Shown here: in pieces, positions 46,718-58,310 of the stretch
How positions within the stretch are numbered: the first letter of the stretch is position 1
Layout of the letters: every line of letters starts with the position of its first letter
Virus record (IMG/VR): IMGVR_UViG_3300013426_000035
Coordinates: 1,329-65,328 of that record
Strand: one strand, 5' to 3'
Source: a virus
Taxonomy: Duplodnaviria; Caudoviricetes
Length of the DNA stretch: 64,000 bases
The notes under the pieces: model-generated
Told to the model about the DNA's origin: nothing
The model's database searches: none
The model's input: only the letters and a program-made list of their open reading frames with translations
Made by a program: the position numbers and the translations under genes

Positions 46718-47191
46718 ATGGCGTGTTCGGGGAACTGCTCTAAATGTCCTTTCCCGTGCGGGGGAGCGTCAAAGCTCTTTGAGCGCGCCAAAACAACAAT
46801 TACAGGCGAAAACAAAGCGTCTGAGCACGGGGATAAAACAGTCAAGGGGGGAATCAAAATGAGTGAAGCGGTCGGGGGATGCCACGCAGGGAATGAAGAG
46901 AAAATCGGTCGCCTTGATGAGCGGAACAATGCGAACGCGGAGCGCGGCAAAACGTGCCTCACGTGCTTTGTGGTTGGCGCTCTTGTAGTGGCTGGCTCTC
47001 TTTGGTACATCAATGGCAAGATTGACGCTCTCAAGGTAGAAATTGCGACTGGAATAACCAAAGTCCAGACGGAATCCAGCATCAAACTACAACACCTCGA
47101 AAAGCGTGTGGAAGAGCTGAAGCGCGAATGCGAACAGGCAAAACGCGACTACACCTCCGCGCGCGTCTATGTCTCAAGGCACAAAGAGTAA
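46718..47191 (+). CDS. membrane protein with coiled coil (spanin/holin-like?)
   Basis: One TM helix then coiled coil; Cys-rich N-terminus; alternative start at 46859. Confidence 0.5.
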   Translation: MACSGNCSKCPFPCGGASKLFERAKTTITGENKASEHGDKTVKGGIKMSEAVGGCHAGNEEKIGRLDERNNANAERGKTCLTCFVVGALVVAGSLWYINGKIDALKVEIATGITKVQTESSIKLQHLEKRVEELKRECEQAKRDYTSARVYVSRHKE

Positions 47192-54001: not shown

Positions 54002-55105
54002 TCACGAAAAAAGCCCGATTTTGGGCAGTTTTTCGACCTCGTGCGCGGCTGAAACATCGTGACTGTACAAGTCGTTCATAACATCGCTTTTGTGTCCTCC
54101 AGCAAGCGATGTAGTGCGTCTGTGTAGCTTGCCTGCGTCGCATCGCGTGAAGAACGACGCGCGGAGGCTGTGGAAACTTGCTTTGCCCTCCTCGTTATCT
54201 TTGATTTTGAGCTTTTTTAGAAGTTTTCTGAAGTCCACGCCTGAGGAGTGGGCTGTTTTTGCGTTGTAGTGGCTTAAAAGAGGTTTTTCGGAATCCTCTG
54301 GGAAATTGAGCTCTGTGAGAATTTGGAGTAACTCAGGCTGGATACCACATGTGAACCATTGCTTTGATTTAGGGCGTTTCCAGCGTATCAGGCGCTCTTT
54401 AAGATTGATTGCGTTGCAAGGTATGGAAAAGGCTGTCGATATGTCCATGCCCGCGAAAAAGCCTAAAGCAGAGGCAACACGCAACGGAAGCCCGGCGGCG
54501 CGGTAAATGCGCTTGAACTCCTTTGCTGTAATAGGACGATGAGAAACGACGTTTCTAATCTTGCGTGATACAATGTTTTCGAACGGGGAGCGTGTCAATT
54601 TTGCCTTGACAAGCAAGAGCCGGAAAGCCTTGTTTAGCACGCTCCTATTGTTGTTGTAGGACTTGTAATTGCGCCCATTTGTAAAGTTTTGCTCTAGGTA
54701 ATTTTGCGCCATTTCCGGCGTTACCATATCCATGTATTTTACAGTCATACTTTTTATAAATCGGGCGATAATCCGGCGGCTGGTAACAGGCAATGTTTGG
54801 ATTTTTTCCAGCTCCTCAATCATGCTTGCAAGAGGTAAGCCGCTCCGGCAATGTTCCCCCTCTTTAGGGAGGGGAAGGACGGTTTTTGGAAGCGGTGTTA
54901 CAGCTAAATGTGCCTGTGGGAAGAATTCCGGAAAGTCCTTGACTATAACGTGTGTTTGCTTGCGTTTTAGCACAAAAGACATGTATTCCGCGTGCAGTCT
55001 GATAGCGTCTACAGGGTCTTTGGTCTTAAGCGTACGGGTCTTAAGTCGCCCGTCAACGTCCCTAAAATAGGCGTAATAGCAACCTTTGATACAGCGTAAA
55101 GCCAT
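54002..55105 (-). CDS. int: tyrosine integrase
   Basis: FHSLRASF and GGHKSDVMNDLY catalytic boxes; TAATG coupling to upstream gene; GGAGG SD. Confidence 0.9.
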   Translation of the reverse strand: MALRCIKGCYYAYFRDVDGRLKTRTLKTKDPVDAIRLHAEYMSFVLKRKQTHVIVKDFPEFFPQAHLAVTPLPKTVLPLPKEGEHCRSGLPLASMIEELEKIQTLPVTSRRIIARFIKSMTVKYMDMVTPEMAQNYLEQNFTNGRNYKSYNNNRSVLNKAFRLLLVKAKLTRSPFENIVSRKIRNVVSHRPITAKEFKRIYRAAGLPLRVASALGFFAGMDISTAFSIPCNAINLKERLIRWKRPKSKQWFTCGIQPELLQILTELNFPEDSEKPLLSHYNAKTAHSSGVDFRKLLKKLKIKDNEEGKASFHSLRASFFTRCDAGKLHRRTTSLAGGHKSDVMNDLYSHDVSAAHEVEKLPKIGLFS

Positions 55106-55353
55106 TACTTTAACCCTCCGTTTCCTGCGCTCGAAATTTGCACGTTTGCGCTTTGGTCGAATGTGTGGTGGACCTCCTGAGGGATGAGGCGACAACCTAT
55201 TGCAGTAGCACAAAATGCCAGCGCAATTCCAGCCGCCGCCCATACCACGTAAGGAGGCAGATTGATAATCGTTTGATTGCCAATGCAATCACCTTTTAGG
55301 GCTTCGAGATGCGTGATACTCCCCCTGTTATCACGCCCGAAGGAGTTATTCAT
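55105..55353 (-). CDS. small single-TM protein between cI and int
   Basis: Overlapping start/stop at both ends; hydrophobic segment VVWAAAGIALAF. Confidence 0.55.
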   Translation of the reverse strand: MNNSFGRDNRGSITHLEALKGDCIGNQTIINLPPYVVWAAAGIALAFCATAIGCRLIPQEVHHTFDQSANVQISSAGNGGLK

Positions 55354-55829
55354 TGTTTCTGTTTTTTCTCCAGCCTGTGTAAGCTAAATTTAACCTTTTC
55401 AGCGTCAGAAAACGAATCCTCTTTTAGAATGTCTATGACCTCTGAAAGGATGTTTTCCGAATCTCCGTTTACGATGTGTGTTATACTCCCTATATTGTCC
55501 CCTCCGAAAGAGTTTAAATCTCCTTTGCTCGTATTTGTGGAGGCGTTCGCGGTGTTCCCTCGGATAGAAATTTTTGCAAATGGAAAGAGCTTGCAAAACT
55601 TGCGGAGAGACAGCTTATCAATAGGCGCAGTCCCTGATATCAGCGCTGATATATAGGATTGTCCTATTCCAGTTTGTCTATGTATCTGCGACTGTGATGT
55701 CTGGTTTGCCATCTCTCTAAGCTCACCCACAAAACCTTCGAGGCGTGGGTCTAGAGGCTCTTTTTCCTTTTCTTTCTCCCCTTTTGCCAGTTGCTCTGTC
55801 TTTTGGGTGTCGATGTTGACTGTTGTCAT
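55350..55829 (-). CDS. CI-like repressor (XRE HTH)
   Basis: SQSQIHRQTGIGQSYISALISG; GGAGGT SD; divergent switch. Confidence 0.75.
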   Translation of the reverse strand: MTTVNIDTQKTEQLAKGEKEKEKEPLDPRLEGFVGELREMANQTSQSQIHRQTGIGQSYISALISGTAPIDKLSLRKFCKLFPFAKISIRGNTANASTNTSKGDLNSFGGDNIGSITHIVNGDSENILSEVIDILKEDSFSDAEKVKFSLHRLEKKQKQ

Positions 55830-56389: not shown

Positions 56390-56707
56390 TCGAGCTCAAA
56401 AGACAGGTGTTATCCCTTACACCTGAAAAAGAAGGGGTGCTCCTTGTAAGAGGAAAAAGGCGCGAGAAGCGCGTGGCAGTCATGGTGACTGCTTGACCTG
56501 ACCCGGAACCAACCCCCGGTCGAAACGGAACTGCGATTTTTAAGGTCTTTACGCAGAAAAACGTTGTTTTGTACCAGCTTTCCTCGCTCCGGTTTTTTGC
56601 GACTGGAACGCGGAAAATTGGCACAAAATGCGCAAGCAGAAAAAAACTTGCAAAAATACCAAAAAGAGGAGGCGTGATAAAAAATGCGAGATTTTTTGAA
56701 ATCGCGC

Positions 56708-56736
56708 TTGCAAAATTCGCCCGGCGGTGTTATTGT
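56708..56736 (+). promoter_or_regulatory. promoter TTGCAA-N17-TATTGT (extended -10) of the C4-like/ant unit
   Basis: Direct reading. Confidence 0.65.
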
Positions 56737-56839
56737 AAATGCGTTGGACCTAGAAATCCACGCAAGTAGCGGAAGTCGCTCCGTCAACTCGACAAACGAT
56801 TCCCGGAAAAATCTTACAGCTCACCCGCTTTGTATTTTT

Positions 56840-56916
56840 GCGGGCTTGAGGGATTGCATCGGAGTAATCCATGCGGCACGACTACTTGCGTGTTTCTAGC
56901 TCCCTATCAAGCCCGC
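56840..56916 (+). ncRNA. C4/CI-like antisense RNA
   Basis: Closing stem GCGGGCTTGA-GGGA / TCCC-TA-TCAAGCCCGC; GTAA hairpin; CACG-ACTACTTG-CGTG hairpin; TTTCTAG bulge; complementary targets on both sides. Confidence 0.75.
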
Positions 56917-56984
56917 TTTTTTTGTGCCCTAGAAAGCGCGAAAAAGCAAAACAAAATAACAGTCTTACAAGTAGGAGACGAACA

Positions 56985-57014
56985 ATGTTTGCTTGCTCAA
57001 ACAATCCTAATTGA
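56985..57014 (+). CDS. 9-aa leader peptide whose SD overlaps the downstream antisense target
   Basis: CAAGTAGGAG (target plus SD) then ATG...TGA. Confidence 0.4.
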   Translation: MFACSNNPN

Positions 57015-57148
57015 ACTCAATTCTCCTTGCGTCTAATCAATAGATTGACGCAGTTCGAACTACAAGCCGTTTTGTTAAAAATGGCAATTTCGCAAAAACA
57101 ACGGGCGCGGAATGGTTCCGCTCCTATAAACAACAGAAAGGTACTCAA

Positions 57149-57955
57149 ATGAGTAACGAAATCATGAAATTCAACTTTGAGGGCGCAGATGTGCGCGTGA
57201 AGACAGAAAACAACGAACCTTGGTTTGTTGCAAAAGACGTTTGCAATGTTCTCGGCATGACAAATTCGAGGGTTGCAGTCAGTCATCTTGATGAAGATGA
57301 AAAGGGAGTAAAAAAAGTTTACACCCTTGGAGGAGAACAAACACTGTCAGTTGTCAACGAATCCGGACTTTATGCGTTGATTGTACGCTCCAACAAACCT
57401 GAAGCGCGCAAGTTCCGGAAGTGGGTTACTGCTGAGGTTCTTCCCTCCATCCGGAAATCCGGCGGTTACATCGCGGCGAAGGCTGACGAAACGCCGGAAA
57501 TGATTATGGCAAGAGCAATCAAACTTGCAGATGAGACAATCAACAGACAAAAACTCCAGCTTGAGGAGAAGGACAAGAAAATCGCGGAAGCGAACAAGCA
57601 AATCGAAATGGATAAGCCCAAAGTCGTATTTGCTGAAAGCATCGCGGTCGCCAAAACGTCAATCCTTGTTGGTGAAATGGCAAAACTTATCAAACAGTCA
57701 ACGGGCGTGGAAATCGGGCAGAATCGCTTTTTTGATTACCTGCGAGAAAAAGGCTATCTCCACAGCAAAGGCAGCCAGAAAAATCTCCCCACACAGCGAA
57801 GCGTCAACGCTGGATGGTTTGAGGTGAAGGAGGGCGCGCGAATCAACAGCGAAGGCGTTAGCGTTATCACTAGAACACCTAAAATTACGGGCAAGGGGCA
57901 AATCTACTTTGTGAACCTCTTCGCGAAAGAATCGAACTCACTTCCCCTGATGTAA
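57149..57955 (+). CDS. phage antirepressor (Bro-N plus ANT/KilAC)
   Basis: EPWFVAKDVC..LG...VNESGLY.LI.RSNKPEA..F..WV; KPKVVFA...LIK...GQNRFF..LRE...TGKGQIYF. Confidence 0.92.
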   Translation: MSNEIMKFNFEGADVRVKTENNEPWFVAKDVCNVLGMTNSRVAVSHLDEDEKGVKKVYTLGGEQTLSVVNESGLYALIVRSNKPEARKFRKWVTAEVLPSIRKSGGYIAAKADETPEMIMARAIKLADETINRQKLQLEEKDKKIAEANKQIEMDKPKVVFAESIAVAKTSILVGEMAKLIKQSTGVEIGQNRFFDYLREKGYLHSKGSQKNLPTQRSVNAGWFEVKEGARINSEGVSVITRTPKITGKGQIYFVNLFAKESNSLPLM

Positions 57956-57994
57956 GACAGGGGAAATAATCTGAAAACTGAAAGAGAACAGAAT

Positions 57995-58132
57995 ATGAAC
58001 AAAATCAACTTGAAGCTTATCGCCGCCGCGCTGGTTTTCGGCGCGGCTATGGGCTATATGATTGGACTTGTACAGATGACTGTACAGTCCGAAAAGCGGC
58101 TTGCTGAGATTGCGGCGGTGTGCAATGAGTAA
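57995..58132 (+). CDS. 45-aa single-TM protein (below ORF-track cutoff)
   Basis: MNKINLKLIAAALVFGAAMGYMIG... Confidence 0.55.
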   Translation: MNKINLKLIAAALVFGAAMGYMIGLVQMTVQSEKRLAEIAAVCNE

Positions 58133-58310
58133 CACAGAAACTGAACACATCGGATGGCGTGGAATTTGCCTGTCTTGCAAGCGCTGGAACGGCGTTATCT
58201 GCGACGCATCAAGACGCAAGAGAGAGGCAACAGATGACTGTTCCTCGCGTTCAAAAAAATATGAACAAAATCCAGCTTACAACACAAAAAAGAAAGAGTT
58301 TGAGGCATAA
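58125..58310 (+). CDS. small Cys-containing hypothetical protein
   Basis: Overlaps previous stop; CLSC. Confidence 0.45.
   Translation: MSNTETEHIGWRGICLSCKRWNGVICDASRRKREATDDCSSRSKKYEQNPAYNTKKKEFEA

Follow-up and report, generated by a model that had tools for sequence, protein, structure and literature searches.

The caudoviricete genome fragment considered here is a stretch of 64,000 nucleotides (nt) from the IMG/VR record IMGVR_UViG_3300013426_000035 (positions 1,329 to 65,328; hereafter the window, with positions counted from its first nucleotide), and its lysogeny region harbors a compact array of RNA and target elements upstream of a putative antirepressor gene (ant). In this array, a 77-nt RNA carries two short words, b' and a', which are complementary to one pair of target words upstream of the RNA gene (a1 and b1) and to a second pair downstream of it (a2 and b2). 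A first-pass annotation of the sequence described the array as a C4/CI-like antisense RNA switch with its own target code, and this description is upheld by covariation, which extends over the three word sites and the helices of the RNA, as well as by a layout that follows the immI region of P1 nearly element for element. Judged by these features, the locus is quite probably a secondary-immunity module of the type known from P1 immI and P4.

Organization of the Locus

The module is preceded by an integrase gene (54002-55288) and a gene for a helix-turn-helix (HTH) repressor (55350-55829), both on the minus strand, and by two small rightward open reading frames (ORFs). Direct reading of positions 56400 to 58300 found the promoter, the four target words and the 77-nt RNA, all on the plus strand, where the first-pass annotation had placed them. 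The putative sigma-70-type promoter (56708-56736) is composed of TTGCAA (56708-56713), a 17-nt spacer and TATTGT (56731-56736), with an extended -10 TG at 56728-56729. A consensus scanner with a threshold of 9/12 makes no call at this site, which scores 8/12; nevertheless, it is conserved in the relatives described below, in which the -35 element is invariant, the -10 element is unchanged or improved (TATATT), and a further 20 nt upstream of the promoter are conserved as well. The a1 hairpin follows at 56741-56763, with a 7-bp stem containing one bulged U and an 8-nt loop that displays a1 (CTAGAAA, 56750-56756); across the relatives, 94% of the alignment cells in its stem are paired and two pairs covary (A-U to G-C and G-C to A-U). 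The b1 target (56759-56769) has a core, CAAGTAG (56763-56769), that begins at the last base of the a1-hairpin stem, and the 11 nt of the target are the exact complement of positions 56882-56892 within the RNA (inverted repeat I7, 100%).

The 77-nt RNA (56840-56916), of which the window contains a single copy, is predicted to fold into a three-way junction, in which an outer stem of 10+4 bp encloses hairpin 1 (56856-56874, with a GUAA loop) and hairpin 2 (56876-56893). The predicted energy of this fold is -37.4 kcal/mol (z = -5.4), none of 200 shuffled sequences folds as well, and both ends of the RNA are placed provisionally, from the predicted structure. The b' word (CTACTTG, 56882-56888) forms the loop of hairpin 2, as first described, whereas a' (TTTCTAG, 56893-56899), which had been assigned to a bulge, is the joining strand of the junction. 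Directly 3' of the GC-rich outer stem lies a U7 tract (56917-56923), which gives the RNA an intrinsic-terminator-like 3' end, and a tract of U6-U7 follows the outer stem in 17/17 loci; a terminator scanner cannot call this arrangement, as its "loop" is the whole junction. Downstream, the a2 hairpin (56924-56939) has a GUGC/GCGC stem and presents a2 (CTAGAAA, 56929-56935) in an 8-nt loop; it is recovered as a helix by RNAalifold, with one base pair that switches from G-C to A-U. The b2 target (56968-56977, word CAAGTAG at 56968-56974) overlaps the Shine-Dalgarno (SD) sequence AGGAG (56973-56977) of a short leader ORF, such that b2 and AGGAG have two bases (AG) in common and b2 lies 10 nt from the start codon, an arrangement that is the same in all types. 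Over both strands of the 64 kb, each 7-mer word is present no more than 7-8 times, yet three copies of each are clustered in 225 nt, which excludes chance.

The leader ORF (56985-57014, plus strand) has nine codons (MFACSNNPN) and a TGA stop; the first-pass annotation gave no coordinates for it, and its start is placed here at 56985. Start, length and TGA are the same in 15/16 relatives, in which changes are synonymous or conservative, and the exception, the divergent locus L157, has a 7-codon ORF (MFTLFHS) at the corresponding place. The ORF had been called icd/kil-like, which goes too far, although a conserved, short and translated-looking frame is indeed present; nothing in its sequence suggests a toxic or division-inhibiting peptide. 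It is followed by an untranslated spacer of 134 nt (57015-57148), which is mildly C-rich (31 C vs 25 G over 133 nt from 57016) and contains two hairpins (57066-57085 and 57103-57125, the latter with the core GCGGAA-TGG-TTCCGC) as well as the SD sequence of ant (GAAAGG, 57136-57141). Both hairpins are conserved in eight sequences; in L157 the spacer before ant differs and these blocks, including the GCGGAA-TGG-TTCCGC hairpin, are missing. The consensus fold also pairs the region 5' of b2 with the ant SD over 6 bp; this helix shows no covariation and is not relied on. The ant gene itself (57149-57955, plus strand) encodes a protein with Bro-N (2e-26) and ANT/KilAC (4e-31) domains according to Pfam, and its C-terminal ANT domain shares 38% identity with the C-terminal part of P1 Ant1 (E 4e-21) and 35% with P1 KilA; its presumed function as an antirepressor is taken from this protein family.

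Relatives and Covariation of the Words

Relatives of the module were collected in three ways: one close relative, L002 (Ant 79% identical), came from a protein-based scan, seven metagenome contigs were retrieved with a pattern derived from hairpin 1, and contigs encoding Ant clusters at 64-87% identity gave eight more loci. The module is found in these 16 related loci from metagenomes and IMG/VR (17 with the window), and 17/17 match a covariance model that was built from six of them, with scores of 85-111 bits. Each RNA module examined stands before a Bro-N/ANT gene, the product of which is 64-99% identical to the window Ant.

Covariation in relatives, on which the first-pass annotation had made its proposal depend, is strong. 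Among 11 distinct RNA sequences, 96% of the cells in the helices are paired and seven pairs change on both sides, a value reached by 0/500 shuffles; the alignment used for this count was fitted to the model described above, and an independent MAFFT alignment gives the same picture. Covariation is present in all three RNA helices, and in L157 (840-1310), which represents a divergent fifth type, the entire hairpin-1 stem is swapped for a different complementary strand pair.

The words change together in the same manner. In an alignment of the window with L002, b' changes from CTACTTG to CTTGTTA, and b1 and b2 both change from CAAGTAG to TAACAAG; likewise, L002 has TTTCTAA instead of TTTCTAG as a' and TTAGAAA instead of CTAGAAA as a2. 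The words of the family fall into five combinations, each with matching a1, b1, a2 and b2, and one chimera. Written as b' / a', type A has the window words CTACTTG / TTTCTAG, type B the L002 words CTTGTTA / TTTCTAA, type C CTACTTG / TTTTCAG, type D CTGTTTA / TTTCTA(A), and type E, represented by L157, CTTGTAG / GTTGTTAA. Word pairing was counted on a MAFFT alignment of nine sequences: between b' and b2, 100% of 63 cells are paired and 3/7 pairs covary, with up to three pair types, and between b' and b1 98% are paired, again with three covarying pairs. For a' and a1 the value is 93%, a1 remaining complementary to a' in the cognate types, while register-shifted controls drop to 31-46%. The a'-a2 count in this alignment is spoiled by an indel; read directly from the sequences, a2 tracks a' in every type. 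A direct reading also shows that in L157 b1 pairs with b' only by means of two G-U wobbles, which fits RNA-RNA pairing rather than a repeat that acts at the DNA level. In duplex-energy calculations, the cognate RNA-target pairs are the best, with the exception of one tie, in which the type C RNA scores on the window targets as well as the window's own RNA does. Diversification of the words with compensation at three sites is hard to explain unless the words serve as a specificity code in trans. Five natural, orthogonal two-word codes and a chimera offer material on how two 7-nt words may set immunity specificity.

The chimera, L138 (4650-4950), is a natural recombinant with its crossover inside the RNA gene: a1b1 and the 5' half of the RNA are of type C, and the 3' half with b' and a', together with a2 and b2, is of type D. 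As a result of this composition, its outer stem contains a C-A mismatch along with a G-U pair, and the RNA lacks a matching a1b1. The Ant subtype is not linked to the RNA type either, as L138 combines a window-like Ant (98.9% identical) with type D words. Together with the recombinant RNA gene, this indicates that the module is shuffled by recombination.

In a different view of the locus, a 71-amino-acid product is encoded and the RNA-like features are incidental. A gene caller placed the corresponding 71-codon ORF (56684-56899) on the identical ENA contig, where it covers the promoter, a1b1 and most of the RNA; the frame is open from a conserved ATG in 9/9 close relatives, and most indels in the spacer sum to multiples of three. 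However, the length of this ORF (51, 61, 70-72 or at least 100 codons) is set only by the RNA words, its stop codon being the a' word itself (TAG/TAA) or lying within b' (TGA), and its start codon is located upstream of the conserved promoter, with an SD-like GGAGG that is not conserved in L002. Moreover, the changes in a1 and b1 are non-synonymous, the covariation tracks base pairs rather than codons, and the start is absent in L157, with no such ORF called in L157 or L160. A coding function is highly improbable on these grounds, and the ORF is treated here as spurious and as a likely mis-annotation that will recur in databases, with gene callers setting a spurious frame of 51-100 codons over the RNA.

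Comparison With P1, P4 and Other Known Systems

In the annotated record of P1, immI comprises the C1 operator, two promoters, a1, b1, the 77-nt c4, a2, b2, icd and ant1/ant2. The part order that it shares with the window runs from a promoter through a1 in a hairpin loop, b1, a spacer, a 77-nt RNA, a2, and b2 on the ribosome-binding site (RBS) of a short ORF to the antirepressor. The spacings are also close, with 14 nt in P1 and 13 nt in the window between a1 and b1, 66 and 70 nt between b1 and the RNA, 77 nt for both RNAs, 29 and 39 nt between a2 and b2, and 10 nt from b2 to the start codon in both. In both systems the words are 7-8 nt long and the effector carries an ANT domain, which the window protein has in common with P1 Ant1. 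The order of helices in the Rfam C4 consensus is that of the window RNA, namely an outer stem, hairpin 1 with a tetraloop, hairpin 2 with b' in its loop, a single-stranded a', and the closing strand. Upstream of the RNA, a1 is exposed by a hairpin loop and b1 follows directly on the 3' side, as in the c4-a1b1 family (RF03163). The defining relations of an immI-type locus are likewise found, as the words are complementary to both an upstream and a downstream target pair, b2 sits on the RBS of a short ORF, and an antirepressor gene follows; the ORF upstream of ant, by contrast, is neither coupled to ant nor Icd-like, with no resemblance to the 73-codon icd. P1 and P7 are known to differ in immunity type by compensated word changes.

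Despite this likeness in layout, the Infernal check suggested in the first-pass annotation, with the Rfam C4 and c4-a1b1 models, was negative. The C4 model (RF01695; clan CL00128) finds no match at its gathering threshold of 45 bits on the 64 kb window, and C4, c4-a1b1, isrK, sRNA-Xcc1 and all other Rfam families give no match to the module at E<=10, whether 801 nt or 101 nt are searched. As positive controls, the C4 model scores P1 at 68.8 bits and P4 CI at 74.9 bits, and the c4-a1b1 model scores P1 at 51 and P4 at 44 bits. In the reverse direction, the model built from the present family aligns with P1 c4 over the full length and helix for helix when filters are switched off, but with 8.4 bits, which is below a chance hit. 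On the basis of these negative Rfam and reverse-model scores the RNA cannot be filed in the C4 family; by sequence comparison it is C4-like in its presumed working, but not a detectable C4 family member. Either homology with C4 has eroded beyond detection, or the design has arisen independently.

The two RNAs also differ in detail. The outer stem has 14 bp in the window and 17 bp in P1 C4, and the 3' flank is U7 in the window (U6-U7 in relatives) as opposed to GCCACC in P1 and CCaCC in the C4 consensus. The CCA-like tail of C4 has been linked to processing by RNase P. In P1 a terminator-like hairpin, an isrK-like part, is located between b1 and c4, whereas in the window the outer stem followed by U7 looks like an intrinsic terminator, so that the RNA itself would take this role. 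With U7 in place of the CCA-like tail, the RNA gene looks like its own terminator, and ant would be transcribed by readthrough alone. Finally, icd of P1 has 73 codons and overlaps ant1, whereas the leader ORF of the window has nine codons and ends 134 nt before ant.

P1 C4 and P4 CI act in trans, as established by genetics and in agreement with the P1 annotation. P4 CI is a small processed RNA within the leader of the operon that it controls, with complementary sites on both sides (seqA - cI/seqB - seqC, kil/eta), and pairing leads to premature termination of transcription, aided by blocked translation of a short ORF. By analogy, P4 CI appears closest to the attenuation layer that is proposed below. 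In contrast to the window RNA, however, it is a clear member of Rfam C4; termination in P4 occurs downstream at a separate site, and the genes under control serve replication and derepression and do not encode a Bro-N/ANT protein.

A further group of systems, IsrK and other c4-a1b1-like leaders (RF01394) and sRNA-Xcc1-type cassettes, has one promoter before an antirepressor-type gene, from which both a short, terminated RNA and a longer readthrough transcript arise; the terminated RNA of IsrK, unlike that of the window, corresponds to the a1b1-like part. IsrK of Salmonella Gifsy-1 has been reported to activate. The isrK model also matches the a1b1 regions of P1 and P4, so the two regulatory logics share parts. 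The RNA of the window might act in the IsrK manner, by opening the long transcript such that the leader ORF is translated and the antirepressor is expressed. In the consensus fold, the leader SD pairs with UCUCC just past the leader stop, and the RBS may therefore be closed by default. This helix is short (5 bp) and weakly supported, with a single compensatory change beside several one-sided ones. Furthermore, in every type b2 extends over the two leading bases of the SD and lies 10 nt from the start codon, which is an inhibitory position, and activation is on balance improbable.

Predicted Folds and Proposed Mechanism

In the mechanism that best explains the locus, the promoter at 56708-56736 would transcribe a1b1 and the 77-nt RNA and, on readthrough, a2b2, the leader ORF and ant. 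The outer stem with U7 would stop most transcripts, and the RNA would be released with its 5' leader or after 5' processing. The b' and a' words of the free RNA would then pair with b2 on the leader SD and with a2 in its hairpin loop, which would block translation of the leader and keep ant off. The link between the leader and ant is most likely polarity, by termination or decay in the 134-nt untranslated spacer. The two words would constitute a private code, such that silencing by a prophage would be limited to ant genes with the same code. We infer transcription, action in trans, repression and coupling to ant, as well as the attenuation layer described next.

Two alternative folds are obtained in silico for the 5' part of the transcript, and neither the terminator-like outer stem with U7 nor a cis pairing of a1b1 that could abolish it was part of the first-pass annotation. 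In the predicted minimum free energy (MFE) structure of the primary transcript, for all cognate types and for L157, a1b1 pairs with b'a' in cis and no terminator is formed. In this fold an arm resembling CTCACCCGC, located upstream, takes up the 5' strand of the outer stem; in the window the arm lies at 56820-56828 (plus strand) and, as a candidate anti-terminator, is able to pair with positions 56840-56850. For the cognate types, the a1b1:b'a' fold exceeds the terminator fold in stability by 1-10 kcal/mol, and it is the best one even before the 3' strand has been made. A tentative second layer of control can be proposed from these folds: the nascent a1b1 would pair with b'a' in cis, freeing the 5' strand of the outer stem for CTCACCCGC and removing the terminator, whereas binding of free RNA to a1b1 would bring termination back, and the RNA would in this way control readthrough of its own gene in addition to translation. 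It is conceivable, though rather doubtful, that a1b1 is in this way the sensor of an RNA-controlled attenuator, in which free prophage RNA on a1b1 lets the terminator form and more RNA is released, and that a two-level immunity, at termination first and at the leader RBS second, which uses a single two-word code, has evolved, possibly independently, in a phage lineage of the Planctomycetes-Verrucomicrobia-Chlamydiae (PVC) group whose RNA has no detectable homology to proteobacterial C4. If true, this would assign a function to the a1/b1 sites of C4-type systems, which have long been unexplained and are annotated merely as "putative" in P1, and an RNA gene fused to a terminator that a1b1 can abolish provides a concrete and testable role for them. 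A comparable choice is made in the plasmids pT181, pIP501 and pAMbeta1, where a small RNA acting on a nascent leader selects between an anti-terminator fold and an intrinsic terminator; their antisense RNAs are encoded on the opposite strand and are fully complementary, whereas the window RNA is encoded within the strand and transcript that contains its targets and relies on two short words.

The same folds could be read without any RNA acting in trans, as a leader switch confined to its own transcript, in which b'a' toggles between a1b1 (readthrough, RBS free) and either a2b2 (RBS blocked) or the terminator fold, with no immunity specificity. Both cis foldings are predicted, the a1b1:b'a' pairing being the MFE structure of the primary transcript, and a processing signal of the kind seen in the CCA-like tail of P1 C4 is absent. 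Such a switch would leave unexplained why five word combinations are complementary at three sites, and the recombinants in which Ant and RNA type are reshuffled fit selection on a diffusible specificity determinant. In addition, the stable stem-plus-U7 product resembles a released, trans-acting small RNA, and P1 C4 and P4 CI with the same layout function in trans. A purely cis-acting device is unlikely when these points are taken together.

Several observations weigh against the interpretation as a trans-acting immunity module with an attenuation layer. No Rfam model supports homology with C4. Types A and C share the b word, and types B and D share the a word, hence discrimination based on energy is modest for some of the pairs. 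With 134 nt between the end of the leader ORF and ant, a coupling by overlap, as between icd and ant1 in P1, is absent, and the spacer is no more than mildly C-rich. As to the attenuation layer, the MFE folds favor a1b1:b'a' simply through word complementarity, and the CTCACCCGC arm retains its pairing potential in an otherwise variable spacer but without two-sided covariation, which makes this layer hypothetical. L138, finally, has an a1b1 that does not match its RNA, so that either matching of a1b1 is dispensable or this phage is defective; it is also unable to form the terminator-free a1b1:b'a' fold.

Distribution, Host and Phage Context

The host of the module can be approached through an integrated relative (Ant 85% identical, RNA at 109 bits), which is contained in contigs of 121-130 kb. 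In L145 (1-6500), the related prophage adjoins a PSP1/YaaT-like gene. The only named homologues of the host-flank genes (PSP1/YaaT-like and Zn_peptidase_2) come from metagenome-assembled genomes (MAGs) of Lentisphaeria/Lentisphaerota, at 64-71% identity, and for this reason the host of the integrated relative is assigned to Lentisphaerota by sequence. The L145 flank thereby provides a host assignment for a phage group without a match among 50,697 phage records, against which the region was searched by blastn. Host inference from portal, capsid-like and lysis-region proteins, from tRNAs and from Pfam searches on the tail and lysis region gave no result. P1, by comparison, infects Proteobacteria, and the published range of C4 is given as "Proteobacteria, phages" (PMC2864571). 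The module would extend RNA-based secondary immunity in the style of P1 and P4 from Proteobacteria to phages of gut Lentisphaerota, with an RNA family that current databases do not recognize, and for this reason such switches are probably under-annotated in gut viromes. The IMG sample that contains L002 is a co-assembly of human fecal samples (bioRxiv 10.1101/2023.07.31.550844).

Relatives of Ant at 35-59% identity (L003-L015, L147-L149, L155), which include one named from an Oscillospiraceae MAG, have no such RNA according to the covariance model, and an Rfam scan of nine of L003-L015 gave no C4 match. A scan of IMG/VR with a 14-base pattern returned 117 loci, mostly by chance, of which the covariance model retained the known relative alone, and two further pattern scans of IMG/VR had the L002 contig as their sole result. 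Species-representative genomes contained no match to the RNA pattern and none to Ant. L133, a single match to a 20-base pattern from the spacer, was rejected as a chance hit.

Some features of the surroundings may be recorded. A repressor operator common to the cI-cro region and the RNA promoter was looked for, and nothing convincing was found. Upstream of the module, positions 56567-56628 form a non-coding, imperfect inverted repeat of 62 nt with about 27 bp per arm, on both strands of which miRNA-like families were matched; these matches, the sole Rfam hits, were dismissed as spurious. The stretch around this repeat is largely missing in L002. The interval from the small rightward ORFs to the RNA promoter contains two terminator-like hairpins on the minus strand (56404-56425 and 56631-56652), by which leftward transcription may be kept from entering the module. 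Elsewhere in the window, positions 46718-47191 show a weak match to Rz-like spanins (phrog_739, E 3.6e-4), which is consistent with a diderm host and would fit Lentisphaerota; a neighboring ORF of 143 amino acids has no detectable family.

The more distant Ant relatives are found in other settings. In Oscillospiraceae-type prophages (L147-L149), the gene for a 57%-identical Ant follows a LexA-like repressor (HTH and Peptidase_S24) and two small ORFs, with no C4-like RNA, which places the same effector under another kind of control. Two human-gut phage contigs with more distant Ant relatives carry a RAGATH-18 RNA (Rfam RF03064, about 63 bits), at L003:4694-4766 and L010:741-804.

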